Shown piece by piece: positions 4,553 to 23,710 of a stretch of DNA of 64,000 nt (the stretch's first letter is position 1; each line of letters begins with the position of its first letter). Made by a program: the position numbers and the translations under genes. The notes under the pieces were generated by a model. It ran no database searches. It was given only the letters and a program-made list of their open reading frames with translations, and had not been told where the DNA came from. Source of the DNA: Escherichia phage vB_Eco_slurp01. The stretch is taken from sequence record LT603033. The stretch is one strand, 5' to 3'.

Positions 4553-4571
4553 TTCTCGTTAGAGGTTTGTT

Positions 4572-4931: not shown

Positions 4932-4941
4932 GACTTAAAAA

Positions 4942-5319: not shown

Positions 5320-5321
5320 TC

Positions 5322-8141: not shown

Positions 8142-8154
8142 ATGGGGAATCGTA

Positions 8155-8598: not shown

Positions 8599-8713
8599 TT
8601 TAACTTTGGGACAACCATTCTTATTATGATATAATGTTTTATGTCATTCGATATAAATGACAACGGAACTATAAATATTATAGTAAAATTTATCTCTTAT
8701 AGGAGTTATAAAA

Positions 8714-9097: not shown

Positions 9098-9104
9098 TAA
9101 AAAG

Positions 9105-9137
9105 GGGTTGACTAAGGTCAGCCCTTTGTTGTATCAT
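9105..9137 (+). promoter_or_regulatory. stem-loop/promoter hybrid (variant)
   Basis: GGGTTGAC-TAAG-GTCAGCCC hairpin, T-run, TATCAT -10. Confidence 0.5.
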
Positions 9138-9166
9138 AACTTCTCAATATAACTGAGGTATCATAT

Positions 9167-9280
9167 ATGCAAGGTTTGAAATTTGTAGTTGCTGCACTCA
9201 TCGCCGCAGTACTGGTTGGTGGTGTATTCTATGTAGTGGATCAAAAAGTAAATCCACCTGCACAAGAACAATCTAAGTAA
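9167..9280 (+). CDS. small membrane protein (37 aa)
   Basis: GAGG RBS; single hydrophobic helix; bracketed by two hairpin/promoter elements. Confidence 0.45.
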   Translation: MQGLKFVVAALIAAVLVGGVFYVVDQKVNPPAQEQSK

Positions 9281-9288
9281 CAAAATAA

Positions 9289-9319
9289 GGTTGACTTCGG
9301 TCAGCCTTTTCTTTATACT
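9289..9319 (+). promoter_or_regulatory. stem-loop/promoter hybrid (PeSL-like)
   Basis: GGTTGACTTCGGTCAGCC + TTTTC + TATACT. Confidence 0.55.
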
Positions 9320-9342
9320 ATAAATATAGACATAGAGAAAAA

Positions 9343-10896
9343 ATGAAATCTATGGAGAGAAATCAAATGCCAAGTAATTTTACTGATAAAAATGGTGGTA
9401 ACATGGCTGGTCACTCTGATAAATGGAGTGAACGCAACCGCCGTCCAAATAGTTATCAAGCAGGTCAAGGTTCACGTGGGTCACGTAATCAAGGAACTGG
9501 TCTAGCTGGTAAAGCAAACGCAGAAGCAGGTGAAGTTAAGAGTACTGAGAACATGACTGAGCTAGAAAAGCTACGTTATGTTAATTCATTGGGACTTCTT
9601 AATGCTACACAAAAACAACGCCTAGCTGATATGGAACGTGAAGAAAAAGAAAAGTCTTCTCCTGCGAAAGAAGAACCAAAACAAGAAGCACCGAAGGCGG
9701 TTAACCCTGTCAAAGAATTGTCTGATAAGTTAGGTAAGATTTTTGCTAATAAACCACAACTTATCCAAGGTATTGTGAAAGAATTGCAATCTGTACCTAA
9801 AGAAGAATTAAAAGTCAAAGCACAAGCTGTACTTGATGCAATGAGTGGAAATACCAGTACTGAACCAACTGAAGTATTCAGTACTATAATGCGTGCACTT
9901 GAAGGTAAACCACAGGGTGACGAGACTGCACAAGAGGAAGTAAGTCTTGAAAGCGTACTTAAAACATTTGATAGTATTGGTAAAGAAGACCGTGCTAATG
10001 CTCAACAAGTTAAGAATGTACTAGCTAAGTTAGAAAACCGTCTGGAAGGTAAAGACGATAAGATTAAATTAGTATCTGATGCAGTTAACGATGCACTTAA
10101 ATCTTACGTACAAGGTGAAAAGAGTCGTTTTGTAACTGCAATGGATGCTGCATTCAATACTATGAAAAAGTATGAAGCTGATCATGGTGAGAAGGTTACA
10201 CGAGATGGTTATCTGATGCGTGATGATGAAGAAGGTGCAGTTGACCAGAAAGATGCTGAAACATCTCATGATGATTTACCTGATACTGTTGATATGGATG
10301 GTTACATTCATCGTCCAGAAATGGGAGAGTTTGGTTCTGACAAAGAAGGATTTGAACATGCAATGGCAGTGTACAAAGCTCTCGTGGACAATCCAGATTA
10401 TGCCAACCGATTTGTAGATGAGTTTGATAGTGCATGGAACAACTACAAAGACAAAGGTTATGACTTCCCTGCTGAGGCAGCATTCTTTGAACTTGGTAAA
10501 CTATTAGCTAAACATGGAATTGATGTAGGTTCTAAAGATGGTACTGATACTGATGGCATGGAAGCAGAATTGGCTAAAGATCGTGAAATGAACGACAACT
10601 CCATTCATGAACTCCAAAAGCTAATGATGTGGATATCCGATATTGGTAAAAAAGCTGGTGCTGATAATAAGAGTATCAACAAAAACATTAGTTGGATTAA
10701 AAGTAATGTTGGTAAAAATGCTCGTAAACTACAAAAAGCATGGACTGATTTAGTAAATGGTGCTGATGATGTTGACATTGAATCACCTGAAGCATACGAA
10801 TATGCATTAACTACTCTTGATAATTCCTTTAAAGATTACGATAACGGTAACGTAACTCATTGGGAAAAGGACATCATGAGCAAATACGGTAAATGA
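9343..10896 (+). CDS. large acidic protein (517 aa), possible virion internal/injected protein
   Basis: Long ORF, highly charged (K/E/D-rich), no TM segments; function is inference only. Confidence 0.6.
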   Translation: MKSMERNQMPSNFTDKNGGNMAGHSDKWSERNRRPNSYQAGQGSRGSRNQGTGLAGKANAEAGEVKSTENMTELEKLRYVNSLGLLNATQKQRLADMEREEKEKSSPAKEEPKQEAPKAVNPVKELSDKLGKIFANKPQLIQGIVKELQSVPKEELKVKAQAVLDAMSGNTSTEPTEVFSTIMRALEGKPQGDETAQEEVSLESVLKTFDSIGKEDRANAQQVKNVLAKLENRLEGKDDKIKLVSDAVNDALKSYVQGEKSRFVTAMDAAFNTMKKYEADHGEKVTRDGYLMRDDEEGAVDQKDAETSHDDLPDTVDMDGYIHRPEMGEFGSDKEGFEHAMAVYKALVDNPDYANRFVDEFDSAWNNYKDKGYDFPAEAAFFELGKLLAKHGIDVGSKDGTDTDGMEAELAKDREMNDNSIHELQKLMMWISDIGKKAGADNKSINKNISWIKSNVGKNARKLQKAWTDLVNGADDVDIESPEAYEYALTTLDNSFKDYDNGNVTHWEKDIMSKYGK

Positions 10897-10966: not shown

Positions 10967-11218
10967 ATGAAAAAATATATTATATTTGGAATTGTATTAT
11001 TTTCCAGTACTGCTTATGGTGCAGATTATCATTGCTCCGTAGCAAGGCAGGATTTCAGAAATGGGGAGTTCTATACTACCTCATACACAAAAGGAATAAT
11101 ACACGACACCGACAGAACTATTGGATTTAATGCGTTTGACAACAAAGATTCATATACTTCAGGTATACTATCTGAGCGTAAGACGGATGTACTCGGAATA
11201 GAAAAAGAGTTTCGGTGA
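10967..11218 (+). CDS. secreted protein (signal peptide)
   Basis: RBS AGAGGA; signal-like N-terminus ending AYGA. Confidence 0.6.
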   Translation: MKKYIIFGIVLFSSTAYGADYHCSVARQDFRNGEFYTTSYTKGIIHDTDRTIGFNAFDNKDSYTSGILSERKTDVLGIEKEFR

Positions 11219-11561: not shown

Positions 11562-11981
11562 ATGAAAAAGATTTTTTTAAGTATTATTTTAGTACTTTTT
11601 AGTTTTAATGTATATGCAGCAGATGCTAAACAGGTTGCTAATACAGTAAAAGATGTTATAGTAGACAATGCTCCTACCTTAGAGGAAATTGGGGTAAAAA
11701 CTTGTGATATAGTAATATATAATTTAGTTAATGATGAACGAGTTATGTTGAATACGTATGAACAAGTAGTCCCATTGGTTGAATCTGGTGATGCTTTTAG
11801 CTTTACATATAAAGTTAAATTAACAGGAGGGGTTGAAGTTAATCTTGACATTGATACCGCTTCAGTACTAAAAGATAAACTAGGATATGTGTTCAATCGT
11901 ATTCGTGAAGAAGGTCATCTTAAGTATGTTTATGAAAGTAAAATACTAAAACGTGCAATAGTTATAGAAAACTGTAAATGA
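11562..11981 (+). CDS. secreted protein (signal peptide)
   Basis: RBS AAGGA; signal-like N-terminus ending VYAA. Confidence 0.65.
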   Translation: MKKIFLSIILVLFSFNVYAADAKQVANTVKDVIVDNAPTLEEIGVKTCDIVIYNLVNDERVMLNTYEQVVPLVESGDAFSFTYKVKLTGGVEVNLDIDTASVLKDKLGYVFNRIREEGHLKYVYESKILKRAIVIENCK

Positions 11982-12050: not shown

Positions 12051-12692
12051 ATGACTAAGCAAGAAATATTCAAAACTTTAATTGACATTTTGCGTCCATC
12101 AAAAACTCGTTGTGCGATGGAGTTTGATATTCCTTATGCTGAACGCGTAATCTTTCCACAAGTTAAAGCTGCTGGACTTACTTTGCTTGGAATGGGGATG
12201 TACTCTGTAGTAGTTGAACATAAAAACTATCCTGGACGAGCATTTAAAGTAACCACTTCACGCTGGGATGGTTTTCGTGCTTATGCAAAGTACTGCATTG
12301 AAAACGCAGGAACCAAGTTTCTTCCAGTGATCTACAGTGCCAACGAACAAGGAAACTTTGGATGGTATGAGATGGACAAGTACTATCCTATAATTAAACA
12401 AAAAAATAATTATGATGACTTTGTTAGTACTAAAATTGGAGATTTATATTCTTATGCACATGCTGGTCAGTACGCTACTTCAGTGAATGATATGCGTGGA
12501 AATTCTGAAGAGATTGCTATTGCGACGGTCGCTGCTAACATCATGAAAGAGTTTCACGGGCGTTTTGTACCAGACATTCATTCAAGTAATGTAATGATGG
12601 ATAAAGATGGGAATGTATTCATTACTGATCCTCTTTCGTGTGATGTGCGTAGAGAAATACCAATTACTGAAGAAGATCCAGTTTTTTATTGA
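12051..12692 (+). CDS. kinase-like fold protein (candidate atypical protein kinase)
   Basis: RBS AGAGGA; Gly-rich segment then K, and HGRFVPDIHSSNVMMDKDGNVFITDP resembling a kinase catalytic loop. Confidence 0.5.
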   Translation: MTKQEIFKTLIDILRPSKTRCAMEFDIPYAERVIFPQVKAAGLTLLGMGMYSVVVEHKNYPGRAFKVTTSRWDGFRAYAKYCIENAGTKFLPVIYSANEQGNFGWYEMDKYYPIIKQKNNYDDFVSTKIGDLYSYAHAGQYATSVNDMRGNSEEIAIATVAANIMKEFHGRFVPDIHSSNVMMDKDGNVFITDPLSCDVRREIPITEEDPVFY

Positions 12693-12753
12693 CAGAACTG
12701 ATGTTCTGATGTATTCTTAATAAACCATAAAAATTGCGGTAAAGGATAAAATC

Positions 12754-13035
12754 ATGCGTTCATTTGAAAACTTAATAGGTAAGCATCTTTTATCTGAAAT
12801 TGATGCAGACGTTAAAGAATTATCCAAATCAAAAAGTTACATTCATTTGGATGAACTATTTGTTAAGTACGGTGAGATTGGTTTTAAGTCATTATTTGTT
12901 TTTACTATGAAAGTACATAGTTTAAAGTACTTCGATTTGAGTGCTAAAGATGGTGAACCGAATCTATATTACATGTATTACCTTAAGAACAAAGATGAAG
13001 CTAATACATTACTCTCTGAATATATATTGGGGTAA
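12754..13035 (+). CDS. hypothetical protein
   Basis: RBS AAAGGA; 93 aa. Confidence 0.6.
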   Translation: MRSFENLIGKHLLSEIDADVKELSKSKSYIHLDELFVKYGEIGFKSLFVFTMKVHSLKYFDLSAKDGEPNLYYMYYLKNKDEANTLLSEYILG

Positions 13036-13037
13036 AA

Positions 13038-13376
13038 ATGGAACAATATTTTGAATTAATAAACAAAGTATCATTTTATGTAGTATCTTTGGTTTGGGTG
13101 TATTATATGTTTTGCTACATTATTGCATTCTTCCGATACACTACTTTATATGAACGTATCTACTATGATGCCCCAATTTCATTCTTGATGTTTTGTGCAT
13201 GTACGTGGGGAATATTAGAAGTACTGATATGTGGGTATAGTACTGATGAATTAAATCTGGTATCGGTCTTGACTGGGTTTTCATTTGTTGTTATGATAGC
13301 TGCCGTTCCAGTATGGTTGTTCTTTGGACTAGTTCATCGCATTGATATATGGCGTTCTAATATCCCTGAAAAGTAA
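13038..13376 (+). CDS. small membrane protein, family A member 1
   Basis: Two or three hydrophobic helices; C-terminal R-x-N-I/L-P-E motif shared with next two ORFs. Confidence 0.6.
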   Translation: MEQYFELINKVSFYVVSLVWVYYMFCYIIAFFRYTTLYERIYYDAPISFLMFCACTWGILEVLICGYSTDELNLVSVLTGFSFVVMIAAVPVWLFFGLVHRIDIWRSNIPEK

Positions 13377-13385
13377 GGATTTGTA

Positions 13386-13727
13386 ATGATTTATTACACT
13401 AACATGTTTGCCTATGCTGTTGCTTGCATTTACATTGTTTACTTCTTATTCGGTGGAGTACTGTGCTTCTTTAAGTACAAAACGTTGTTCAACCGAATGT
13501 ACCCAAATCATCCAATTGTAGTTGTACTTTTGATTCTTTCAGTTTCTCAAATAATCGTTGAAACTACAATGGGTATCAGTAGTGTACATTATAGTTTTGG
13601 TACTATAGTAATTATTACTATGCTTATTGCATACATTTTAGTACTTGGATATGGTATCTTTGGTAATATTGGTATGAAAATGTATCATCGAATTAAAACA
13701 TTACGTGATAATCTACCGGAGCGTTGA
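13386..13727 (+). CDS. small membrane protein, family A member 2
   Basis: Paralog of 13038..13376; C-terminal LRDNLPER. Confidence 0.6.
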   Translation: MIYYTNMFAYAVACIYIVYFLFGGVLCFFKYKTLFNRMYPNHPIVVVLLILSVSQIIVETTMGISSVHYSFGTIVIITMLIAYILVLGYGIFGNIGMKMYHRIKTLRDNLPER

Positions 13728-13728
13728 T

Positions 13729-14073
13729 ATGTATAATTTGAACCTAATCTCATATATTATAACAACACTGTTTACATTCTATGCCTTTGTTGGTATAATC
13801 CTACTGTACTTTAAATTTTATAAAGTGTTTAACCGTTTCTATCCTTCAATGGAGAATGAGTTTTTCTTTGTGTTGTACGTAGGTTACACGTTAATGGCTA
13901 CATGTTTCACTGTAGCCGATGGTGTCATCGGCATTAAAACTGATTCCCCAAATGGTAGTACGCTGGTTGCATTTATTCTTACCGGATTCCTTGCAACTTA
14001 TATTGCCTTCATTACAACATGGTCAGTTGTTGAATTTCTCTTGCGACTACGAAAGAATATGCCGAATAGATAG
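13729..14073 (+). CDS. small membrane protein, family A member 3
   Basis: Paralog; C-terminal LRKNMPNR; ATG at 13729 directly after upstream stop. Confidence 0.55.
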   Translation: MYNLNLISYIITTLFTFYAFVGIILLYFKFYKVFNRFYPSMENEFFFVLYVGYTLMATCFTVADGVIGIKTDSPNGSTLVAFILTGFLATYIAFITTWSVVEFLLRLRKNMPNR

Positions 14074-14082
14074 GAGACATAT

Positions 14083-14337
14083 ATGTTTGCGTTGCGTAAT
14101 AAAAACACTAAAGAATTATTATGTATTGATACCGTATGGGATTGTGCGGGGTCAACTACAGTTCTTGAAGAAGGAACTGGATATTGCGTGTTTGTTGTAC
14201 ATGATAGGAATGAACTCGAATTATTACTTGCTGAGTTCAATGCTGGTGGTAATCCTAACAGTACTGAATACCCTGAGATTATCAATCCAGCACCACCAGG
14301 CTCTTATGAAATTCTACAACTGTGGGAGTTGAAGTAA
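14083..14337 (+). CDS. hypothetical protein
   Basis: RBS AGGAG; 84 aa. Confidence 0.6.
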   Translation: MFALRNKNTKELLCIDTVWDCAGSTTVLEEGTGYCVFVVHDRNELELLLAEFNAGGNPNSTEYPEIINPAPPGSYEILQLWELK

Positions 14338-14717
14338 TGCGTCAAATGCACAAAGTAACCGAGCTAAACAAGCGTCTGGTTAAACAATCAATGTTCGAGG
14401 ATAAAGAGTCTTATTATAACTTTAAACGTGCAGTAGAGGCTGCTATCCACATTCAGAAGCTTAAAGAACGTGGTTGTATTATTCTGGAAAATGGTTCGGA
14501 AGTTGTAACGGATGACTTTAGTGTAGCGTTTGATGTTTCACCTGACGGGACGCTATCAATGCCCCGCTTAGGAACTGGAAACATGACTGTTTGGGTTGGC
14601 TTCACTATGGGGAATGTACCTGGTACTGTGTACGTAGATGATGCGGAATTGAAAGACAGTTTCAAAAACTTATCTTATCTTGAACCACAATACGCACATG
14701 AAATGAATTTATTTTGA
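14337..14717 (+). CDS. hypothetical protein
   Basis: TAATG coupling; about 126 aa. Confidence 0.55.
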   Translation: MRQMHKVTELNKRLVKQSMFEDKESYYNFKRAVEAAIHIQKLKERGCIILENGSEVVTDDFSVAFDVSPDGTLSMPRLGTGNMTVWVGFTMGNVPGTVYVDDAELKDSFKNLSYLEPQYAHEMNLF

Positions 14718-14742
14718 GTTGACAAACACATTCAGTACTGTA
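14709..14742 (+). promoter_or_regulatory. sigma70-like promoter
   Basis: TTGACA, 16-17 bp spacer containing CAGTACTG, TATAAT; followed by 5'-UTR hairpin GGGATGA-ACTTC-TCATCCC. Confidence 0.5.
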
Positions 14743-14793
14743 TAATGCTTATCAAGGGGATGAACTTCTCATCCCTACAATCGAGGAACTACC

Positions 14794-15348
14794 ATGATTA
14801 CTTTTAAGAAAACTGCTAACCACATCCATGAAATCTACATTAACGGTCACAAAGCTGGCCTTCTTCGTTTACTCGCCCATCATCCTGATGTTACCGTATC
14901 TGATAATGAACCTAAAGATTGGCGTGTATTTTTCTTTGGAAAGTACAGTGATTTTCAAGTATCAAACCTGAAGAACATTCGTTCAGTATGCACGTTAACT
15001 GAAATTAAAGAAAAGTTAGAAAAAGCATTGAAAACTAATCCAGATGGTGTTCTTCCACCTGATAACTTTGTAGAGAAAGGTTATGCATTAGCTCATTTCA
15101 AAGATGGTACTATTCAATCTATCAGTACTGAATATGAATATCAATGGACTGAGTACTTCACTTATGGATCGCGTAATACATTGATGGCTTCACGTAGTAA
15201 ATTGGAAGAAGTACTGACTCGTATGAATGAACGCGAACGTCAATTTTATGACAAACCAGAAATGTGGAGTTCAACTTACATTGACCGTATTGACTATGTT
15301 ATTATGACTCCAATCTTTGACACTGCTTACTATGATTCTTTGAAATAA
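14794..15348 (+). CDS. hypothetical protein
   Basis: RBS GAGGAA; 184 aa. Confidence 0.65.
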   Translation: MITFKKTANHIHEIYINGHKAGLLRLLAHHPDVTVSDNEPKDWRVFFFGKYSDFQVSNLKNIRSVCTLTEIKEKLEKALKTNPDGVLPPDNFVEKGYALAHFKDGTIQSISTEYEYQWTEYFTYGSRNTLMASRSKLEEVLTRMNERERQFYDKPEMWSSTYIDRIDYVIMTPIFDTAYYDSLK

Positions 15349-15359
15349 GGATAACTTAT

Positions 15360-15536
15360 ATGAAACTACGTACTCGTAATCGACTGATGGATGCACTGTA
15401 CCATGAACAGCTTTCACTGAATGAAGTGAAGCGTCAGTTAATGTACACATATCTGTTACCCGCTCGCATTGCAAAACAACGTGCTAAAGAATTGCTGAAA
15501 GAAGCAATCGAGTACTGGGAATCTGATTCGTACTAA
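15360..15536 (+). CDS. small hypothetical protein (58 aa)
   Basis: RBS AAGGA; below ORF-track length cutoff; fills intergenic gap. Confidence 0.45.
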   Translation: MKLRTRNRLMDALYHEQLSLNEVKRQLMYTYLLPARIAKQRAKELLKEAIEYWESDSY

Positions 15537-15564
15537 TTGTCACGTTAATTAAGTGAGGCGATAA

Positions 15565-15816
15565 ATGAAAATTTTATTAGTTCTAATACTACTAATTGTT
15601 TTACCATTTACGTTAGTATCCCCTGAACTTGCATGGAATGTGTTTGTGTACTTACTATGTACTATTGTAGTAAATGGTATCTTGTTCTTAGTTCTATTCA
15701 TAAATGGAATAGGACACGGTGGAGGATGGACCAGTACTGCTGATATTGTACATAAAACCACTATGTCTTTATTTGTAGTGTGGAATTTATTCTGGACTTG
15801 GTTTGTGTTCTTCTAA
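15565..15816 (+). CDS. small membrane protein
   Basis: RBS GTGAGG; highly hydrophobic 83 aa. Confidence 0.6.
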   Translation: MKILLVLILLIVLPFTLVSPELAWNVFVYLLCTIVVNGILFLVLFINGIGHGGGWTSTADIVHKTTMSLFVVWNLFWTWFVFF

Positions 15817-15825
15817 TTAAAAAAT

Positions 15826-16197
15826 ATGAATATAGATTTGAAAGGTGCAACCCGAACTGTTATCCTCATTGGGGAATACGCTATCAAGATTCCAACCTTT
15901 AAAAGTTGGAAGCTATTCTTAACAGGGATGATAGCTAACCTCAATGAACGTTCGTGGATGCAGTACTCCAAGCGTAGTGATACTGGTATCTGTCCTACTT
16001 TGTGGTCATCATGTACTGGACTAGTAACTGTACAGAAACGTTGTAAGCCAGTACAACATAGGGGTTTATTTTGGGTGGAGTTGTGTGCTTTAGCATTGAA
16101 TTCAGAGTTAAGTACTGACTTCTTCTATTCAGATGCGAAGCCAGAAAACTTTGGGTATCTGTGTGGTAAGTTGGTTAAACTTGATTATGGAGATTAA
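15826..16197 (+). CDS. mini kinase-like protein (truncated or atypical)
   Basis: Motifs AIKIP, DAKPENFG and KLDYG in kinase order; weak RBS. Confidence 0.4.
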   Translation: MNIDLKGATRTVILIGEYAIKIPTFKSWKLFLTGMIANLNERSWMQYSKRSDTGICPTLWSSCTGLVTVQKRCKPVQHRGLFWVELCALALNSELSTDFFYSDAKPENFGYLCGKLVKLDYGD

Positions 16198-16198
16198 T

Positions 16199-16468
16199 AT
16201 GTACGCACTGTATAATAAAGAAAAGAAACGATTTGCTAAGGTTGAAATTTCGATTGATACATTTGATATGTTGGAGTACTGTATTGTAACTGACCTATAT
16301 GCTAACTTGTATTACGTTCTTGATGACGTATCAGTACTGCAACGATTGCTTGAGAATTCCAAAAGTCAATGCCAAGGCATCCATGATGGTTCATCTTATG
16401 AAACACCTGAGTGTTCCTACGGCTATCTGGACGGGTATGAGATTGTGAAGTTGGGGATTGTTGAATAA
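16199..16468 (+). CDS. hypothetical protein
   Basis: ATG at 16199 after GGAG; track ORF N-extension overlaps previous gene. Confidence 0.5.
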   Translation: MYALYNKEKKRFAKVEISIDTFDMLEYCIVTDLYANLYYVLDDVSVLQRLLENSKSQCQGIHDGSSYETPECSYGYLDGYEIVKLGIVE

Positions 16469-16562
16469 ATGGATTAAACAATGAAGAAGTGTATGATTCT
16501 TTGTTCTAATCACCATCGCATGGTACATTCTGGTAGACTATGTTTGATTGAAAGAAAAAAAA

Positions 16563-16595
16563 AGGGTTGACTTCAGTCGGCCCTTTTTGCTATAA
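16563..16595 (+). promoter_or_regulatory. stem-loop/promoter hybrid (PeSL-like)
   Basis: GGGTTGACTTCAGTCGGCCC + TTTTT + TATAAT. Confidence 0.6.
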
Positions 16596-16624
16596 TCATT
16601 TCATCGAAACGAGAGGATGAATAC

Positions 16625-17059
16625 ATGACACGCATTAACTTAGTACACGTTAAAGAACTTGCTGACCAACATCTGATGGCTGAATATCGTGAACTCCCAC
16701 GTGTATTTGGTGCTGTACAAAAACACGTTCAAGCACGTAAGCGTGTACGTGATTTCAAAATTAACAGTACTTATCTGTTAGGTTCAGGTCATGTAACATT
16801 TTTCTACGACAAGTTACTGTACTTACAGAAGCGTCATATTGATATTGTCAACGAATGTCTGCGTCGTGGTATGAAGATTCAAAACACTGAAGTAAACGAC
16901 ATTAGCGGCTTCCCTGCTGAGTTTTGTAATGACTACATACCAACGGAGTCAGAGATTAAAATGTCTCGTGAACGTTTGATTGAGAAGCTCCAGATGAAGC
17001 CTACGTGGTATAAATTTACTGATGTTGAGTTACCTGAGTATTATCGTTCTATGATCTAA
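16625..17059 (+). CDS. denV: endonuclease V (pyrimidine-dimer DNA glycosylase/AP lyase)
   Basis: N-terminal MTRINL...[21 protein letters not shown] and ...[10 protein letters not shown]...PTWYK are near-identical to T4 endonuclease V as I recall it; RBS GAGAGGA. Confidence 0.9.
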
Positions 17060-17122
17060 AAAAAACATTAACACCAGTTTTATCTTTCAGTATCATGTAA
17101 CAAAGAAAATGAGGAATACAAC

Positions 17123-17482
17123 ATGGCATCTTTAAGTGAAATCGCAGAATACAACCCACTAACAATCTCAACAATTCAACGTACAAAAACTTTTTATTTC
17201 CGTCCTGCTGATGGATGGAAACGTGGAATGAATGGTGACTATCGAGTACTGGAAGATTCGCTCATCGAGCGTATCAACTCTGAACTACAGAAGTATGAAG
17301 GTGTTAAAGTTGTGCGTTCAACTTCTCGTTATTTTGAGTACTACATTGAGTCTTCAACTGTAAATGAAAACTCATCATTCTCGGTGGACAACACTGATAT
17401 TCTTCGTAATGCAGTTGGTTTGCTATGCAACATTGCAGAAGAAATGGGATTAACTATCGCCACAATGAGTGAGTTAGAATAA
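17123..17482 (+). CDS. hypothetical protein
   Basis: RBS GAGGAA; 119 aa. Confidence 0.65.
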   Translation: MASLSEIAEYNPLTISTIQRTKTFYFRPADGWKRGMNGDYRVLEDSLIERINSELQKYEGVKVVRSTSRYFEYYIESSTVNENSSFSVDNTDILRNAVGLLCNIAEEMGLTIATMSELE

Positions 17483-17488
17483 CATAAA

Positions 17489-17521
17489 GGGTTGACTTCG
17501 GTCAGCCCTTTTTGCTATAAT
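17489..17521 (+). promoter_or_regulatory. stem-loop/promoter hybrid (PeSL-like)
   Basis: GGGTTGACTTCGGTCAGCCC + TTTTT + TATAAT. Confidence 0.6.
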
Positions 17522-17547
17522 TATTTTATCGAAACGAGAGGTAATAC

Positions 17548-17787
17548 ATGAAACTATCTTTTATACGTTTAGCAGAATTCTTCGGTACTGATATAATTAC
17601 ATTACAACAAATTGCAGACAATACTTCATTAAGTACACAAGAAGTACTTGACTTGGATGTAATTAAGTGTGATAATACTTCCATCGATTACAAAGAAGGT
17701 CTTGTCGAAAAAGATAAGATTCAGGCTAAGATTAATGGTGCTGGACGGGTTCAGTACTGGAAAGGAGTTTTAAGTAATGCCAGCTAA
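17548..17787 (+). CDS. hypothetical protein
   Basis: RBS GAGAGG; 79 aa. Confidence 0.6.
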   Translation: MKLSFIRLAEFFGTDIITLQQIADNTSLSTQEVLDLDVIKCDNTSIDYKEGLVEKDKIQAKINGAGRVQYWKGVLSNAS

Positions 17788-19663
17788 ATTAACCCCTAAA
17801 CAAGCAAAAGAAAAATTCAACAATAAAGTATTAGAACATAACGTTCCAATTGAAGCTGATTATAGTAAGTATGAAAATGCCAAATTAAAAAACATCCAAG
17901 TAGTTTGCAATGATGTATTAAAACACAAATCAGGCATATCACAAGTATATCTTATGGATCACGCAAACCTCACACACCCATCTAAAAAATTTGGTTGTCC
18001 TGAATGTGAAGACTGGTATAATGGTCATGCTAAAAGTTTAGATATTTTAATTGTTAGGGAAAGAATTAATTCTTGGATTAGTACTTATGGTGGCATAATT
18101 GATACAGTTAGTGGTGAAGTTGAAGTTTATAAAAATAATTCAACAAAAATACCATATATTTGTAAAAATGGAACTAAAAAAACGCTTACTATTTCTACAC
18201 TGGGTGATGAAATCGGTTGTAATTGTTCTAAATGTAAATCTGAATTAATATCAGAAATCGAAGATAACAATGAATATACATCCATGACTACTGATGATGA
18301 TTGTGTTACAATTTCCCATTTTATATTTGGGGATGATGTTGCATTCTCGTGGATTTCACCATTGGAAATGAAAAAACATGGTTACGGTCTTGCCGAAAAA
18401 ATGAAAGAAAAAGCATTGTCGGTTGGTAAAAATATTATTGGATATGCAATATCATCTCTTAGTGAATGGAAAAATGAAAAAACTCCTGTAATAACGGAAC
18501 ACGAAGGAGTATTATATCGTATTTCCAGAGCATCATATTTGATCAATAATAATATAGTACATAGACCACATTATACAAAAAATAATTTTTTATATTATTT
18601 TTACAAATGTTCACCTAACAATCAACTTATTACACCAATCCTAATACCTGATGATGTTGGTACAAAAAAGAAAATTAAAGTATGTTATAAATCATGTGGG
18701 TGTGAATACGATATATCTGTGGACGTTATAATGAACAGAAATTTAAAAACTTGTGGAAACTGTAAAAATATAGATACTAAAACATTTATAGAAAAGTGCT
18801 TGGAGTTCAAATCAAGTGGAGAATATATCTATGATAGAGTAAACTATATAAATCAAAGTACACCTGTAACTATAGTTCATAAAATTTACGGAGAATTCAA
18901 AAGTACACCACAAAATCACTTAACACATTTAAAAAACAGTTTGAAATATGATACAGCTAACTTTAAAATAAAAAATCTAACTCAATTTAAAATTAAAGCA
19001 AATGAAGTTCATAATAACTTATATAATTATGATAAAGTTGATTATGTAAATTCTTCAACGAAAGTATTAATAACTCATCCAGTGTATGGAGACTTTTGGC
19101 AAACTCCAAATGGGCATTTGGCAGGTAAAGGACACCCGAAAGTCAAAGGTGGTGTTCCTTATACATGTGATGAATTTAAAATTAAAGCAAATGAAGTTCA
19201 TAATAACTTATATAATTATGATAAAGTTGATTATGTAAATTCTTCAACGAAAGTATTAATAACTCATCCAGTGTATGGAGACTTTTGGCAAACTCCAGCA
19301 AGTCACCTTTGTGGGTCTGGTCATCCACTTGCGGCTGGTCATTCTCAGCAATATGCATATATTCATAATATTTTGGATGGTGATTTATCTGTAGCATTGA
19401 AATATGGTATTGAAAAGCAGAAAGGTAAGAGGGTTATGCAGCAAAATAAAAAATCATTATTTAAAATTGAATCGTTACATACGTATTTTTTCACATCTGT
19501 GTTTGAGTGTAAGGAAGCTGAAAAAGAATGTAAAAAACTATTTGGTAAAGGCGTTTTAACTAAACAAGAAATGCCAGATGGTTATACTGAAACTACTACA
19601 CCAAACAACATAGATAAAATTATTGCAATCTATGAAAAATGGGGTGGGGTGAAAAAAAACTAA
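17777..19663 (+). CDS. Cys-rich repeat protein (628 aa), possible nuclease/homing-endonuclease-like
   Basis: RBS AAAGGAG; several CxxC/CxC clusters; at least three copies of a roughly 40-aa motif Y-x-YDKVDY-V-N-S-S-T-x-V-x-I-x-H-P-V-Y-G-x-F; function unverified. Confidence 0.65.
   Translation: MPAKLTPKQAKEKFNNKVLEHNVPIEADYSKYENAKLKNIQVVCNDVLKHKSGISQVYLMDHANLTHPSKKFGCPECEDWYNGHAKSLDILIVRERINSWISTYGGIIDTVSGEVEVYKNNSTKIPYICKNGTKKTLTISTLGDEIGCNCSKCKSELISEIEDNNEYTSMTTDDDCVTISHFIFGDDVAFSWISPLEMKKHGYGLAEKMKEKALSVGKNIIGYAISSLSEWKNEKTPVITEHEGVLYRISRASYLINNNIVHRPHYTKNNFLYYFYKCSPNNQLITPILIPDDVGTKKKIKVCYKSCGCEYDISVDVIMNRNLKTCGNCKNIDTKTFIEKCLEFKSSGEYIYDRVNYINQSTPVTIVHKIYGEFKSTPQNHLTHLKNSLKYDTANFKIKNLTQFKIKANEVHNNLYNYDKVDYVNSSTKVLITHPVYGDFWQTPNGHLAGKGHPKVKGGVPYTCDEFKIKANEVHNNLYNYDKVDYVNSSTKVLITHPVYGDFWQTPASHLCGSGHPLAAGHSQQYAYIHNILDGDLSVALKYGIEKQKGKRVMQQNKKSLFKIESLHTYFFTSVFECKEAEKECKKLFGKGVLTKQEMPDGYTETTTPNNIDKIIAIYEKWGGVKKN
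18974..19300 (+). repeat. perfect intragenic direct duplication (about 130 bp x2, separated by about 60 bp)
   Basis: AATTTAAAATTAAAGCAAATGAAGTTCATAATAAC...GGAGACTTTTGGCAAACTCCA occurs twice identically. Confidence 0.85.
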
Positions 19664-19669
19664 ACAAAA

Positions 19670-19702
19670 GGGTTGACTTCGGTCAGCCCTTTTTGTTATA
19701 AT
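19670..19702 (+). promoter_or_regulatory. stem-loop/promoter hybrid (PeSL-like)
   Basis: GGGTTGACTTCGGTCAGCCC + TTTTT + TATAAT. Confidence 0.6.
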
Positions 19703-19730
19703 TATTTCATCAACTGATGAGGATAACGAA

Positions 19731-20501
19731 ATGACCAGAGAAGCACGTAGCATTCAAATCCAGAAAAACTTCAACTCCATGATGGTTGCTCTTGAGTGTT
19801 TGCTCGATGATAGCAGTACTGTAAAAAGTATGGTTGTCAGTGGTGCTCCTGGTGTTGGTAAGACTTACACCCTGTCTAAACGCCTCCAGAAAGCTCATGA
19901 CGCAGCAGAATGGAACGTAGCTACCATCAGTGGTAAAATGACTACTCTGGCTCTGTACGAAGTTCTGTACAAGAATCGTCATAGCACCAACGTATTAGTA
20001 CTGGATGATATGGACAGCATCTTTGATTCAGAAGACGGTATGAACCTGCTCAAAGCAGTACTGGACAGCGGTAAACGTACTGTGTCTTACATGACTAGCT
20101 CTAAGTACTTAACCACTAACGGTATCCCTAACAGCTTTGATTTTAACGGTCGTATCGTATTCATCACTAACAAAGATTTAGCATTAGATGCTAAAGCTAA
20201 AACGAAAATGTCTGCTCACTATGCTGCTCTTATGTCTCGTTCTGTATACGTTGACTTACAGATTCAGACCAAAAGCGATATCATGATTCACATTGAGAAC
20301 GTGATGAATCAGACTAACATTTTAGAATCTAAGGGTATTAACCGTAATGGTAGTAAAGCAATTCTGAACTGGATGTTGAAGCACGAAGATTCTCTTCGTT
20401 CACCTTCACTGCGTATGCCACTGTTGATTTCGGCAGTATATAACAACAACCCATACGATTGGGAAGAGCAGTGCGAAAACTTGTTCCTTGAGAAAATTTA
20501 A
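19731..20501 (+). CDS. P-loop NTPase (AAA-like ATPase)
   Basis: Walker A GAPGVGKT and Walker B-like VLVLDDMD; RBS GAGGA. Confidence 0.7.
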   Translation: MTREARSIQIQKNFNSMMVALECLLDDSSTVKSMVVSGAPGVGKTYTLSKRLQKAHDAAEWNVATISGKMTTLALYEVLYKNRHSTNVLVLDDMDSIFDSEDGMNLLKAVLDSGKRTVSYMTSSKYLTTNGIPNSFDFNGRIVFITNKDLALDAKAKTKMSAHYAALMSRSVYVDLQIQTKSDIMIHIENVMNQTNILESKGINRNGSKAILNWMLKHEDSLRSPSLRMPLLISAVYNNNPYDWEEQCENLFLEKI

Positions 20502-20508
20502 TTCCATA

Positions 20509-20540
20509 TTGACAGTACTACCATAGTGTAGTACTATAAC
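20509..20540 (+). promoter_or_regulatory. sigma70-like promoter
   Basis: TTGACA + 17 bp + TACTAT upstream of membrane-protein array. Confidence 0.4.
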
Positions 20541-20566
20541 TTAATATTCACCACCGGAGATACGAT

Positions 20567-20905
20567 ATGCTTGAGTTTTTTAATTCAGATACAATGATTA
20601 GTATTACTTTGATTTATCTGTTTGGTTTTTTCTTTTATCATGCACTGGTTGTAGTACTGTGGTATTTTAAAAAGAAAATTGTTTTTAAACTGTATCCAGT
20701 AAGGAATTCATCACTAGTTCTTTACACACTAGTTCAAGGTTTGTTTGCAATTGTTGGTCTTATGGCACACTTAATTTATTGTGCCAATCCTCACTTGAAC
20801 TCAATCTCACAATATATTGTATTCTTTGGGTTGTTCATTTGGTTAGTTGTATACTTAATCCATCTCATTATTCATGGTAGAGATAAAATTCGCGGAGACT
20901 TCTAA
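20567..20905 (+). CDS. small membrane protein, family B member 1
   Basis: First of seven tandem hydrophobic ORFs of about 110-125 aa with basic C-termini. Confidence 0.6.
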   Translation: MLEFFNSDTMISITLIYLFGFFFYHALVVVLWYFKKKIVFKLYPVRNSSLVLYTLVQGLFAIVGLMAHLIYCANPHLNSISQYIVFFGLFIWLVVYLIHLIIHGRDKIRGDF

Positions 20906-21252
20906 TGTTTGAAGCTTATCTTGAGTTTTTAAAGAGTAGTTCTGTTGCACATTCAATTGCAGGGATTATTCTAACAGGTTATGTAACATTTTGGGTAGTT
21001 ATGTTTCTAGGATGGTATTTTAAACGACAATTCTATAAGCGTAATGGTGAAGATTTTATGAATTCTTTCATTAATCAATCGTTGTTTGCATCAACATTGA
21101 TAGCATGTATTGTAGCAACACTCACAGGAAAGGTACTGCCAGCATTCTCCGCAGTTTACGGTACATTGGGTATGATATGTGTAGTTTTTTACTTGACCAT
21201 TAAAATTTGTTGTGTTATGATTGAACTTCGAAATAAGATACCGGAGGAATGA
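20905..21252 (+). CDS. small membrane protein, family B member 2
   Basis: TAATG coupling; multi-helix hydrophobic; C-terminal LRNKIPEE. Confidence 0.6.
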   Translation: MFEAYLEFLKSSSVAHSIAGIILTGYVTFWVVMFLGWYFKRQFYKRNGEDFMNSFINQSLFASTLIACIVATLTGKVLPAFSAVYGTLGMICVVFYLTIKICCVMIELRNKIPEE

Positions 21253-21587
21253 TGGAGTACTTTATTGATTTACTGCCGTGGTATATGAAAGTTAGTACTT
21301 TGTACTATATTATTAGTGCTGGATTCTACTTTCTGATGTGGTTCTTTAAACGACCAATTTCAGTATTCATCGCTGATAACATGCTGCAATTAAAATTACA
21401 CGCATGGTTTGGTATGGCGATGATTATGCCTATTATTCACTACTCAATGATTAGTAGAGGTTTCCGTTCTAATGGTGAACCAATTGTATTAGTATTCTAT
21501 TGGGGTTCAACTATTGCATATGTAAGTTTGTTGTTGTTCCCAGTCGTTCATAAATTACGTGCTAAAGTCCCTGATGCGAGGTACTAA
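21249..21587 (+). CDS. small membrane protein, family B member 3
   Basis: ATGA overlap; C-terminal LRAKVPDARY. Confidence 0.6.
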   Translation: MMEYFIDLLPWYMKVSTLYYIISAGFYFLMWFFKRPISVFIADNMLQLKLHAWFGMAMIMPIIHYSMISRGFRSNGEPIVLVFYWGSTIAYVSLLLFPVVHKLRAKVPDARY

Positions 21588-21901
21588 TGGATATCGTAAC
21601 ATTGATTTACACGTTGTATTCATTCTATTTCATTATGTGTTGGGTTGGATTTTTATTTGTACTCAAGATGTTTGATTATGTTGAAAAACAGATAAAAGAA
21701 TTTTGTATTCCTTTTATCGGATCAACCATTATTAGTGTTTCTTGTGTGTATTTTTTGGTTTTTGAACCACCAGATAACACTGCAATGATTGACTTGATGT
21801 TACTACCAACAACTGTTACTTTTTTATGTAGTCTGATGCCGCCGATTAGCCGTGGACTAACAGAATTTAGACGCAACCAAAAGCGTAAACGAGGGATGTA
21901 A
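21587..21901 (+). CDS. small membrane protein, family B member 4
   Basis: TAATG coupling; hydrophobic. Confidence 0.6.
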   Translation: MDIVTLIYTLYSFYFIMCWVGFLFVLKMFDYVEKQIKEFCIPFIGSTIISVSCVYFLVFEPPDNTAMIDLMLLPTTVTFLCSLMPPISRGLTEFRRNQKRKRGM

Positions 21902-22269
21902 TGGAAATTGCTCTTATTATCTTAACTGCTATGCTGTTTATTAGTACTGTGGTTATAATTGGTAAATTCTTTTGTGTATCATTTTTAGAAACGGTATACG
22001 ATGAAATTGCTGATGATTATGAATTACAAGCCGGATTTTTCATTACGTATTGGCTTAGTTTATTTTGTCTAGTCATTGCTTGGATTTTACATATCTTTAA
22101 ATGGGGTATGGTAGACGGTGATCCTATTATGGCAATTATTGTTCTAGTGTTTGGTATCCTTGGTGGTGCAGTGCATAATCTAATGGTTATCTGGCAAACT
22201 GTTCAATATGTTTTGGTTCCCTATTTCGAAAAGATGCACAGTACAATTAAAAAACGTAAACGAGGTTAG
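21901..22269 (+). CDS. small membrane protein, family B member 5
   Basis: TAATG coupling; hydrophobic; C-terminal KKRKRG. Confidence 0.6.
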   Translation: MEIALIILTAMLFISTVVIIGKFFCVSFLETVYDEIADDYELQAGFFITYWLSLFCLVIAWILHIFKWGMVDGDPIMAIIVLVFGILGGAVHNLMVIWQTVQYVLVPYFEKMHSTIKKRKRG

Positions 22270-22270
22270 T

Positions 22271-22633
22271 ATGAACGGGATAGAATTATCTTTCGTTGGT
22301 CAATTACTAGTAATGGCGTATACATTTATCTTCTCACTGAATGCATTCGTGTGCATTGGGAAGTACTTCCATAAGCGACCATTATCAAATATATATGATG
22401 TAATCCAAAAGAGATATAGTCCAGCATATACTGTGTTGGGTACAGTATTCAATTTTGGTTTTATTGTATTAATAATTGGACTGTTCACATCCTCTTTGAA
22501 TACAATAACCTTCGGTCTTATGATATGTTCATTGGTATTAGCCGTAATTATATGTTGTTTAGTACTGCACCTTGTGGTACTATTGTATATAAAGATCTCT
22601 GAAATCCACCAACGTTTGGGTATGAGGAAATAA
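22271..22633 (+). CDS. small membrane protein, family B member 6
   Basis: ATG at 22271 with GAGG; hydrophobic. Confidence 0.55.
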   Translation: MNGIELSFVGQLLVMAYTFIFSLNAFVCIGKYFHKRPLSNIYDVIQKRYSPAYTVLGTVFNFGFIVLIIGLFTSSLNTITFGLMICSLVLAVIICCLVLHLVVLLYIKISEIHQRLGMRK

Positions 22634-22634
22634 T

Positions 22635-23006
22635 ATGAGTTACCGTGAGATATTTTCCATTATTTCAATTATTATGTTCAGTACTGGAACACTGGTATGG
22701 TTATTATACTTCTTCTGTATTAATCCAGTGTATAATATGTTATGTAATATTAAATCAAGTGCCGGATATATCACTTTTATGGTCTTTATGGGATATTATT
22801 GTCTAAGCATTTTAGGTGTTGTTTTGGTTGTTATATTTGATGTGGGACCAAATAGTGATGGTATGGAAATACATGAATTAATAACCATGTTTGGATGTAT
22901 GATACCAACAGCACTACTGTTTGTAGCTACTGGTAGTGGATTGATAAAATTATATAATTATTTAAAATCCATTCATAATTCCATTCATAATAAGCGTATG
23001 TCATAA
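22635..23006 (+). CDS. small membrane protein, family B member 7
   Basis: Hydrophobic; RBS GAGGAA. Confidence 0.6.
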   Translation: MSYREIFSIISIIMFSTGTLVWLLYFFCINPVYNMLCNIKSSAGYITFMVFMGYYCLSILGVVLVVIFDVGPNSDGMEIHELITMFGCMIPTALLFVATGSGLIKLYNYLKSIHNSIHNKRMS

Positions 23007-23012
23007 TAAAAA

Positions 23013-23036
23013 TCCAGTACTATCAAGTACTGGATT
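23013..23036 (+). terminator. hairpin ATCCAGTAC-TATCA-AGTACTGGAT
   Basis: Inverted repeat immediately after stop of 22635..23006. Confidence 0.4.
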
Positions 23037-23047
23037 AATAAGGAGTT

Positions 23048-23710
23048 ATGATGAAAACAAAATTAGGTTTGTTTTATAAAAATTATTTCGTTAAACAGCG
23101 TAAATTTATAAAAAAATATTTCTCTGGTGAGAAGTCTAGTCCTATAATTTTTAAAAGACCAAGTTATAATACTTACTTAGCTGATGCTAAACAGTCTAAG
23201 AAATTTATTACTCTTTTAAATAAAAACAAAATTAAAGCTTCTTATGTTGAAACGAGAAGAAACTCATCAATAACTCCTGGTGATTTTATTGAGTACGGAT
23301 GTTTCAATATTAAGTATAATGATAATACATACTTTATGGATATTGATTGTAATACATCCAATCTTTTTAACATTGTAGTAAATCCATTAAAACAATATAA
23401 TGTTTATGGTGATTCTATTATCAAATTAATCAAAAACAAAGATGGCTTTGATTTTGAAATAAATGTTTTAGATGATAATTTTGACGAAGTACCCGTAAAC
23501 CCTGAAATCTGTGATATTTTAAACAGTTTAAAAGGTAGTACCTACAATATATCATCTGATTTAATGTTTCAGTACTCATTAATCCATAAAGATATTGAAA
23601 AGTATATTGAATGTTCCAAAATTTTGAATTATCTTTACGATGAATTTAAAAAGAGTTCTAAAATAACCGCATACACTTTGTACAATATTCCTAAAATGGT
23701 GAATCTTTGA
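23048..23710 (+). CDS. hypothetical protein (K/N-rich, very AT-rich)
   Basis: RBS AAGGAG; 220 aa; converges with minus-strand array. Confidence 0.6.
   Translation: MMKTKLGLFYKNYFVKQRKFIKKYFSGEKSSPIIFKRPSYNTYLADAKQSKKFITLLNKNKIKASYVETRRNSSITPGDFIEYGCFNIKYNDNTYFMDIDCNTSNLFNIVVNPLKQYNVYGDSIIKLIKNKDGFDFEINVLDDNFDEVPVNPEICDILNSLKGSTYNISSDLMFQYSLIHKDIEKYIECSKILNYLYDEFKKSSKITAYTLYNIPKMVNL

Follow-up and report, generated by a model that had tools for sequence, protein, structure and literature searches.

Two early-region gene arrays of an Asteriusvirus jumbo phage encode one diverged family of small, predicted three-pass membrane proteins

Are the ten small membrane-protein genes that lie in two tight arrays in the early region of a jumbo phage one family or two, and what might their products do? 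The question is raised by a window of 64,000 nucleotides (the whole stretch of DNA analysed) from Escherichia phage vB_Eco_slurp01 (LT603033), an Asteriusvirus belonging to the RaK2-like jumbo phages and having an Escherichia host. The original prediction placed three genes at 13038..14073 and seven at 20567..23006, and all ten open reading frames are present there, co-oriented on the + strand, as arrays A and B. Kyte-Doolittle profiles gave three hydrophobic segments per protein and a basic C-tail in 10 of 10, where the earlier estimate had been two or three helices; the sizes, put at about 110–125 aa, are 104–123 aa. Two members, A1 and B6, are missing from the annotation of GenBank record MK817115.1. 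No annotated member is among the proteins of the published virion proteome, and a literature search found no paper discussing the ten genes. No further copies of the family turned up in a scan that covered the rest of the window and, next to it, 50 kb of phAPEC6 early region. The members are as follows.

13038..13376, + strand: A1, 112 aa, three-TM member, without annotation in MK817115.1; phrog_19285, E=3.9e-59; dN/dS 0.19
13386..13727, + strand: A2 (gp029c), 113 aa, three-TM member; dN/dS 0.15
13729..14073, + strand: A3 (gp028c), 114 aa, three-TM member, from the ATG used in relatives and not the GTG at 13705; dN/dS 0.29
20567..20905, + strand: B1 (gp017c), 112 aa; phrog_19454; dN/dS 0.20
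20905..21252, + strand: B2 (gp016c), 115 aa, modelled with AlphaFold2; lost in Salmonella phage SD-1_S14
21249..21587, + strand: B3 (gp015c), 112 aa from an ATGA overlap, or 111 aa from 21252
21587..21901, + strand: B4 (gp014c), 104 aa
21901..22269, + strand: B5 (gp013c), 122 aa
22271..22633, + strand: B6, 120 aa, start taken at 22271 and not as the longer frame from 22208; without annotation in MK817115.1 and without a PHROG; dN/dS 0.38
22635..23006, + strand: B7 (gp012c), 123 aa

The junctions between members are very tight. Stop and start codons overlap (TAATG or ATGA) at four of the eight, as had been claimed for the arrays in general, and the other four have gaps of 1 nt (three junctions) or 9 nt (one). 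A Shine-Dalgarno site is present for every array gene, and the last 2–4 codons of each gene also serve as that site for the gene that follows. Part of the likeness among the conserved tails (PER, PEE, KRKRG), presented earlier as a protein feature, therefore reflects the coding of the next gene's ribosome-binding site.

The surroundings of the arrays contain the following elements.

12689..12717, + strand: sigma-70-like promoter candidate TTGACA-17-TATTCT by consensus match only, with a small hairpin (12693-12708) between the hexamers
19666..19702, + strand: PeSL-like stem-loop and consensus promoter AAAAGGGTTGACTTCGGTCAGCCCTTTT TGTTATAAT, upstream of the ATPase/B-array unit, with the promoter site at 19673
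19731..20501, + strand: NrdC.10-like P-loop/AAA ATPase (gp018c), with weak AAA matches in Pfam and ~40% identity to T4-type nrdC.10
20509..20537, + strand: weaker promoter-like site TTGACA-17-TACTAT by consensus match only, with an inverted repeat; it lies in the 65 nt that separate the ATPase gene from B1
23011..23036, no strand assigned: hairpin with an 11-bp stem closing the B array, with a T-run on the minus-strand side only

The first of these sites lies upstream of a 93-aa gene (12754-13035) and the A array, and the published nt-1 PeSL consensus served as the comparison for the element at 19666..19702 (PMC4122927). The motif TTGAC-N17-20-TATAAT occurs 18 times in the region against an expectation of 0.66, and the promoters found upstream of the arrays are of the sigma-70 consensus only. 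In CBB, a related phage, the region presumed to be early is marked by RpoD-like promoters (PMC5259590). The density of this promoter class agrees with the earlier assignment of the arrays to an early region, and judging by the promoter consensus they are probably expressed early. Together, the indications are strong that the array genes form translationally coupled operons behind sigma-70-type promoters. Neighbouring genes encode the AAA-like ATPase, a T7 gp0.7-like kinase and RCC1-repeat virion proteins, and there are numerous small ORFs for secreted proteins or lipoproteins.

The two arrays had been described as two families. Profile comparison with hhalign joins them into a single diverged superfamily, with values of 95.9% for A and B1 (E=2.6e-9), 94.8% for A and B2, 97.6% for B2 and B3 (E=1.7e-11) and 92.7% for B5 and B6 (E=5.7e-8). 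Bridging pairs reached 31–49%, and controls against unrelated three-TM families of the same region stayed at or below 0.4%. Reciprocal HMM searches of six-frame ORFs from the loci then collected returned family members only, and common motifs are seen in the alignments. These comparisons show the ten genes to be paralogues of one ancient, fast-evolving family of what are predicted to be three-pass inner-membrane proteins, and bear out the view of an expanded family, here of ten diverged copies. In contrast, PHROGs splits them into seven unrelated families of unknown function (19285, 19454, 19046, 27396, 33258, 26405 and 27618), which cover nine of the ten proteins at full length with E=1e-50 to 1e-70, except for A3 (weak, 3e-4), and holds none for B6. 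Most genes of jumbo phages are recorded as 'hypothetical protein'; here a single defined superfamily takes the place of ten ORFs without names, of which two lacked annotation, and of seven PHROGs.

The multi-pass character proposed for these proteins was borne out by topology prediction. When lysine and arginine were counted over the hydropathy segments, the totals were 4 for the N-terminus, 29 for loop 1, 4 for loop 2 and 42 for the C-tail, and by the positive-inside rule the predicted topology is N-out/C-in, with a periplasmic N-terminus and a cytoplasmic loop 1 and basic C-tail. The positions best kept across paralogues are a juxtamembrane motif after TM1, [WY]-F-K-[KR] or G-K-F-F, and the C-terminal basic helix, both on the predicted cytoplasmic side. 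An AlphaFold2 model of B2 is all helical with a mean pLDDT of 73, and Foldseek comparison of this model with BFVD returned orthologues only.

Conservation in relatives, which the original prediction had made a point of possible refutation, was found at several distances. Both arrays are present in 32 Asteriusvirus records at 82–99% nucleotide identity, and diverged orthologues occur in RaK2, A4, Turkey5, Munch and metagenome contigs. All ten genes are intact in fEgEco12, with dN/dS of 0.10–0.55 and a dS per gene that runs from 0.04 to 1.5 in a mosaic pattern. Array members share 22–39% identity with RaK2, where the neighbouring ATPase shares 70%, and thus diverge far faster; B3 is the B-array member best kept in comparison with A4 and Turkey5. 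The number of A-type genes varies by lineage from 1 to 3 and that of B-type genes from 7 to 9 in most relatives, with fewer in Munch, and single members are duplicated in particular lineages. Array order is largely conserved, with B3-B4-B5-B7 one-to-one orthologous across genera. B2 is naturally deleted in Salmonella phage SD-1_S14, as far as the quality of that assembly can be relied on. An exhaustive profile search of 1.84 billion proteins gave 20 clusters, all short and family-sized; wherever a source was traced, it was a RaK2-like jumbo phage or a syntenic contig from a metagenome. Among the matches of the word-indexed and exhaustive profile searches there was no named protein, and among those with a given or traced source no relative outside the jumbo-phage lineage. 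As far as found, the family appears restricted to RaK2-like jumbo phages and related metagenome contigs.

Two further candidate observations were set aside. The split of 121Q gene 228/229, considered as a sign that B4 is dispensable, comes from one additional T in a T6 run and was not used because the extra T may be a sequencing error. Notes in ph0011 that name 'Phi92_gp231/233/234' were treated as annotation artefacts, since the phi92 genes of those names differ in size and that phi92 region holds no family member.

African swine fever virus, a large eukaryotic DNA virus, carries in its MGF110 genes small membrane or ER proteins in terminal tandem arrays. There is no homology and the host here is bacterial, so the likeness is conceptual only; it lies in tandem, diverged small membrane paralogues, in a variable early part of a very large genome and in copy number shaped by birth and death. 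The superfamily now has a predicted topology, conserved motifs, an address beside an NrdC.10-like ATPase and a birth-and-death history.

The best explanation, offered tentatively as an inference about function, is that the paralogues are independently acting early inner-membrane proteins that confer immunity or act as gatekeepers. The proteins would be made early and inserted into the host inner membrane, where each would act individually as an accessory protein. A conserved scaffold of TM1, juxtamembrane motif and C-terminal basic helix would provide insertion and topology, and a variable hairpin of TM2, periplasmic loop and TM3 would bind one specific partner that inserts into membranes, such as the pore-forming part of a superinfecting phage's tape-measure protein or a pore of the colicin or tailocin type. 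With several paralogues, exclusion would be broad in spectrum. Copy-number variation, lineage duplications, loss of B2, mosaic dS and fast divergence suggest proteins that are accessory and act individually. The hairpin is also the more variable part, with regional identities, from a crude hydropathy segmentation of few genomes, of 50% in TM2, 56% in loop 2 and 45% in TM3 against ~64% in the N-terminus, TM1 and loop 1.

By analogy, this is how T4 Imm and the immunity proteins against pore-forming colicins work. T4 imm is an early gene. Its product (PF14373) resembles the array proteins in being a small phage inner-membrane protein with a periplasmic N-terminus (predicted here), and the arrays have early-type promoters; it differs in having 83 aa, another helix count and a single copy, against ten three-pass paralogues of 104–123 aa with motifs of their own. 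Imm acts in the membrane against a membrane-inserting protein: it has been described as a small N-out inner-membrane protein that binds the tape-measure protein and has been likened to pore-forming-colicin immunity proteins (bioRxiv 10.64898/2026.03.06.709160). The latter share size and three-TM architecture with the array proteins, and their specificity through helix-helix contacts within the membrane would fit a variable TM2-TM3 hairpin; the array genes, however, are phage-encoded and multi-copy, match no such protein in Pfam, NCBIfam or PDB, and have no colicin gene nearby. The Imm family itself was absent from a Pfam scan of all ten proteins at E up to 1. Searches of Pfam, NCBIfam, PADLOC and PDB sequences gave nothing above noise, and neither sequence nor profile in these or in PHROGs linked the family to Imm, Sp, holins, colicin immunity or defence-system proteins; PADLOC defence and candidate-defence profiles had no match in the nine members other than B7. 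The orderly orthology of B3-B4-B5-B7 argues against exclusion proteins of this kind, since it exceeds what a pure arms-race battery would be expected to keep and would also fit a multi-subunit assembly. Should the arrays be a battery of Imm-like proteins, new specificities for exclusion at the membrane could be drawn from them, and they would also bear on the design of cocktails with Asteriusvirus therapy candidates.

Much of the same evidence bears on a second reading, rather unlikely, in which every paralogue has its own target in the host inner membrane (a transporter, a protease, a division or stress-sensing protein or a membrane-embedded anti-phage system), which it binds and inhibits, and does not act on incoming phages. 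Early-type promoters, predicted inner-membrane topology and rapid evolution of a mosaic kind, with genes gained and lost in particular lineages, are consistent with such host takeover or counter-defence, and the T7 gp0.7-like kinase and the many small secreted or lipoprotein ORFs nearby make the region rich in envelope-directed functions. The loss of B2 in a phage isolated on Salmonella, not E. coli, would fit host-specific targets. However, no target can be named, no likeness of the family to known anti-defence or defence-system proteins was found, and the data do not tell this reading apart from the exclusion model. The roles suggested at first, in superinfection exclusion, membrane-stress modulation or inhibition of host defences, are likewise not told apart by them.

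The ATPase next to the B array introduces a third reading, which is improbable: that the paralogues come together in a single hetero-oligomer in the inner membrane, and that this complex may dock to the NrdC.10-like ATPase, or be loaded by it, by way of the conserved cytoplasmic motifs. In every lineage examined, three metagenome lineages included, the B array is preceded immediately by the ATPase or separated from it by one small gene, and annotated terminators in the Munch record bracket ATPase and array as one unit. The largely kept order of distinct paralogues, the tight translational coupling at all junctions and the cytoplasmic location predicted for the best-kept shared positions point the same way. 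The histories of ATPase and array are nevertheless discordant, with identities of 98% against 23–67% in A4 and of 58% against 73–88% in ph0011. Homologues of nrdC.10 occur in about 1300 phage records and the array in a few dozen; in the T4-type phage RB51 the genes downstream of nrdC.10 include seg, nrdC.9 and nrdC.8, and HMM search found no family member in this region, the one T4-type region examined. Between the A array and the ATPase there are 6.5 kb, the number of members is not constant (far fewer are recognisable in Munch), and B2 is deleted in SD-1_S14. PADLOC gave only marginal P-loop matches for the ATPase. A more specific version, more doubtful still, sees distinct subunits of a phage-built membrane machine, peculiar to RaK2-like phages and assembled or powered by the ATPase, which a 350-kb phage could use as a platform or conduit when its genome enters, when it replicates or when it is assembled; on this view, kept order, coupling and cytoplasmic motifs would be signs of subunits put together in fixed stoichiometry. 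NrdC.10 is widespread in T4-type phages and uncharacterised; if the array proteins formed a complex with the ATPase, that would be a first hint of what NrdC.10 does.

Class I holins of the lambda S105 type have three TMDs and a short charged cytoplasmic C-terminal tail, and the array proteins likewise have three TMDs, a predicted N-out/C-in topology and about 105–120 aa, so that a role in lysis timing as holins or antiholins has to be weighed. The endolysin of this phage group has an N-terminal TM domain, and the paper on CBB names no holin (PMC5259590). Such a role is nevertheless very unlikely. The arrays are not part of a lysis cassette, being adjacent to neither endolysin nor spanin (the endolysin homologue, 121Q gp532, is elsewhere), the promoter candidates found upstream of them match the early-type sigma-70 consensus and not the late motif, and no holin family in Pfam, PHROGs or NCBIfam matched. 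Ten paralogues would be unprecedented for holins. A holin is reported in the paper on fEgEco12, but the record of that phage labels every one of these genes 'hypothetical protein'. That the arrays are chance ORFs or decaying remnants without function, as the two members lacking annotation in the deposited record might suggest, is refuted by ten genes intact across relatives under the dN/dS values given above, by orthologues that in another genus still share 22–39% identity and largely keep their order, and by a Shine-Dalgarno site at every gene.

The stretch 13000-23100 was found to be 99.8% identical over its full length to the reverse strand of MK817115.1 (vB_EcoM_phAPEC6, 352.6 kb), the record of an Asteriusvirus and RaK2-like jumbo myovirus. 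The ORF list and translations contain the three and seven co-oriented genes of the original prediction, which are given here with the gene upstream of the second array.

13038-14073 (+): A array, small membrane-protein genes A1-A3
19731-20501 (+): NrdC.10-like P-loop ATPase gene
20567-23006 (+): B array, small membrane-protein genes B1-B7

Following relatives, the starts of A3 and B6 were placed at ATG 13729 and ATG 22271, and longer ORFs from 13705 and 22208 were not used. The products had been described as proteins of about 110-125 aa with two or three helices; they measure 104-123 aa, and every one combines three hydrophobic 19-residue windows with a basic C-terminal tail. Eight of the ten are annotated in the GenBank record, and A1 (13038-13376) and B6 (22271-22633) lie in unannotated gaps. 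All ten are intact in the related phage fEgEco12 with dN/dS of 0.10-0.55 (A1 0.19, B6 0.38); the same comparison gave 0.047 for the ATPase and 0.23 for denV. Both arrays are conserved in relatives, being present in 32 Asteriusvirus records at 82-99% nucleotide identity. The arrays are therefore real and not a chance pattern. Between gp024c and gp023c, two more genes are missing from the MK817115.1 annotation: 15565-15816 (+), encoding an 83-aa membrane protein, and 15826-16197 (+), encoding 123 aa. Their counterparts, of the same position and size, are annotated in A4, Turkey5, fEgEco12 and ph0011, and the 83-aa protein differs by a single residue in A4 and likewise in Turkey5. In phage 121Q, an extra T in a T6 run splits the B4 orthologue into genes 228/229 (locus 2862-3177), which probably reflects a sequencing error and not a pseudogene.

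The arrays had been taken for two families, a division that profile comparison, HMM retrieval and common motifs overturn in favor of one diverged superfamily. BLASTP finds weak similarity between members (A1-A2 1e-9, B1-B2 5e-4, A1-B7 0.025), and PHROGs spreads them over seven families of unknown function, with no family for B6. Orthogroup profiles were built from phAPEC6, 121Q, A4, Turkey5, RaK2 and Munch and compared by hhalign.

Profile comparisons between orthogroups (hhalign probability; E-value where available)
A-B1: 95.9%; 2.6e-9
A-B2: 94.8%
B2-B3: 97.6%; 1.7e-11
B1-B2: 82.6%
B2-B4: 82.7%
B5-B6: 92.7%
B5-B7: 49%
Bridging pairs B4-B5, A-B6, B2-B5, B2-B6: 31-40%
Controls, three other three-TM families of the same region: <=0.4%

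Among six-frame ORFs of >=60 aa in the compared loci, an HMM of A and B1-B4 retrieved only B5, B6, B7 and the RaK2 ORF316 type, and the reciprocal B5-B7 HMM retrieved A, B1 and B4 members. The alignments share a motif after TM1, [WY]-[YF]-F-K-[KR] or G-K-[FY]-F, and a C-terminal motif, h-x-x-[LFI]-[RH]-x-[KN]-h followed by P-[ED] or K-R. HMM searching of the window and the adjoining 50 kb of early region found no additional copies. A1-A3 and B1-B7 are thus a single ancient, lineage-restricted multigene family under purifying selection. An hmmsearch run exhaustively over 1.84 billion cluster representatives returned only 20 proteins at E <=1e-3, all of 44-115 aa, and word-indexed searches returned only unnamed proteins of Escherichia, Klebsiella and Salmonella jumbo phages or metagenomes. 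Pfam, NCBIfam, PADLOC (nine members scanned) and PDB sequences gave no match to family members, and a BFVD fold search with the B2 model gave orthologues only. Databases already list the genes as hypothetical proteins, and the literature search found no paper that discusses them.

Charge counts over the ten proteins (K+R totals: N-terminus 4, loop 1 29, loop 2 4, C-tail 42) give the clear positive-inside signal of an N-out/C-in topology. The AlphaFold2 model of B2 is all-helical (mean pLDDT 73), with long helices spanning 13-38, 55-74 and 78-110. Stops and starts, said to overlap head to tail, do so at some junctions and are 1-9 nt apart at others. The member genes are tightly coupled translationally: at 9/9 junctions, after A1-A3 and B1-B6, the Shine-Dalgarno (SD) sequence of the next gene lies within the last 2-4 codons or across the stop, where GGAG is read as P-E or G-D and GAGG as R-G, E-E or M-R-K. 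Because the downstream SD sits in tail codons, the likeness of the tails is partly a coupling constraint; the R/K and histidine positions before the SD are conserved at the protein level. Salmonella phage SD-1_S14 has lost B2 by a natural 253-bp deletion, subject to assembly quality, and only the last 29 codons remain (locus 634-723), the part with the SD for B3. Array coverage is partial in related SD phages.

The gene of the 255/256-aa ATPase immediately precedes the B array in phAPEC6, 121Q, fEgEco12, ph0011, A4, Turkey5, RaK2 (with one small soluble ORF between), Munch and three metagenome lineages, one of them a 324-kb contig. The Munch record has annotated terminators on both sides of ATPase and array. 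Orthogroup order is largely conserved, as B1/B2-B3-B4-B5-(B6)-B7-(ORF316 type), with lineage-specific duplications of B1 (121Q and ph0011), B4 (Turkey5), B2 (RaK2) and B5 (324-kb contig); the Munch ATPase locus has only three HMM-recognised members. A-type copies number three in phAPEC6, fEgEco12, ph0011 and Turkey5 and one in A4, RaK2 and Munch, and lie at most a few kb from a T7-gp0.7-like kinase gene in loci where the kinase is annotated or detected. Array members diverge much faster than the ATPase, with amino acid identities to phAPEC6 of 22-39% vs 70% in RaK2 and 23-67% vs 98% in A4; in ph0011 the values are 73-88% and 58%. The ATPase and array histories are discordant in A4 and ph0011, which implies recombination between them, in the 65-nt promoter-like spacer that separates the ATPase gene from B1. 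Between phAPEC6 and fEgEco12, dS is as low as 0.04 in B2 and as high as 1.5 in B7, the values forming a mosaic from gene to gene. Early-type promoters precede the genes, and the family shows birth-and-death and mosaic evolution. Beyond the B array, from 23691 (-), paralogous RCC1/WD40_RLD-repeat genes annotated 'DNA condensation protein' form a convergent block. The block is kept in Asteriusvirus relatives, Munch and the longer metagenome contigs and was not seen there in RaK2; the short contig L012 stops before any RCC1 genes. Several proteins of the block are present in the phAPEC6 virion proteome.

The pattern TTGAC-N17-20-TATAAT has 18 matches in the window vs 0.66 expected, 17 of them on the + strand inside + strand gene blocks. 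These consensus sigma-70 sites fall into two classes. Class 1, TTGACTTCGGTCAGCCCTTTTTGYTATAAT preceded by AAAAGGG, combines stem-loop and promoter in a PeSL-like element, in which an A4G3...C3T4 stem-loop encloses the -35 hexamer and TGYTATAAT follows. Class 2 is TTGACA-N10-AGTACTGTATAAT.

4092-62465: consensus sigma-70 sites (n=18), e.g. 5865, 16567, 17492, 19673; 14719, 44884, 54156, 57782
12689: weaker promoter-like site with internal inverted repeat, before the gene preceding A1
19666-19702: composite stem-loop and promoter, just ahead of the ATPase gene and the B array
20509: weaker promoter-like site with internal inverted repeat, before B1

Class 1 elements resemble the T4-type PeSL promoter-terminator cassettes, including the nt-1 stem consensus A3-4G3-loop-C3T3-4 (PMC4122927). 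By analogy with a proposal for T4-type PeSLs, the consensus sites may serve as junctions at which cassettes are reshuffled by recombination. In the related phage CBB, RpoD-like promoters cluster among short ORFs taken as early genes (PMC5259590). The predicted early expression of the arrays is well indicated by the early-type promoters, the CBB parallel and the virion proteome, whose 62 phAPEC6 proteins include no annotated family member.

Identity to the phAPEC6 proteins is about 64% over N-terminus, TM1 and loop 1, and 50%, 56% and 45% in TM2, loop 2 and TM3. Tentatively, the members may act individually as early inner-membrane immunity or gatekeeper proteins, in which TM1 and the cytoplasmic part would form a constant scaffold and the variable TM2-loop-TM3 hairpin would recognise membrane-inserting targets. 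The suggested analogue is T4 Imm, whose binding partner in the membrane is the tape-measure protein and which has been likened to pore-forming-colicin immunity proteins (bioRxiv 10.64898/2026.03.06.709160). Inhibition of host membrane proteins or membrane-based defence systems fits almost equally well. Strict synteny, conserved member order and translational coupling suggest a hetero-oligomeric complex of members with the ATPase, a reading weakened by ATPase/array reassortment, variable membership, the B2 deletion and the single T4-type region examined, RB51, which has nrdC.10 and no family member; about 1300 phage records contain an nrdC.10 homologue. Only the architecture speaks for a holin role; genomic location, promoter class, copy number and the lack of a holin-family match in Pfam and PHROGs speak against it.

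The arrays would belong to a familiar kind, the accessory small membrane proteins of phage early regions. New are the union of the ten genes in one superfamily with A1 and B6 as previously unannotated members, the predicted topology, the account of the tails by the SD sites within them and the constant position next to the ATPase. Elsewhere in the early region, 17777-19663 (+) encodes a protein of 628 aa that is annotated 'exonuclease ABC C subunit'. Within it a segment of about 63 aa is duplicated in tandem almost perfectly (...FKIKANEVHNNLYNYDKVDYVNSSTKVLITHPVYGDFWQTP...), and the protein has no Pfam match at E <=0.01. A shorter 213-aa ORF with DUF723/DUF4379 matches, in the same early region of metagenome contigs, may be related to it. 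With many small ORFs that have lipoprotein-like or signal-peptide starts, the early region as a whole abounds in envelope-directed products. There is also a second, unrelated small membrane-protein cluster, whose three membrane proteins have counterparts in unchanged order in RaK2 (locus 7983-9629).

3866-4108, 4167-4493, 4942-5319 (+): membrane proteins of the second cluster, within 3866-5672
4572-4931, 5322-5672 (+): interleaved signal-peptide proteins, apparently paralogous
557-802, 1170-1445, 7340-7561, 10967-11218, 11562-11981 (+): small ORFs whose N-termini are of lipoprotein-like or signal-peptide type (e.g. ...LLTAC D/N...)
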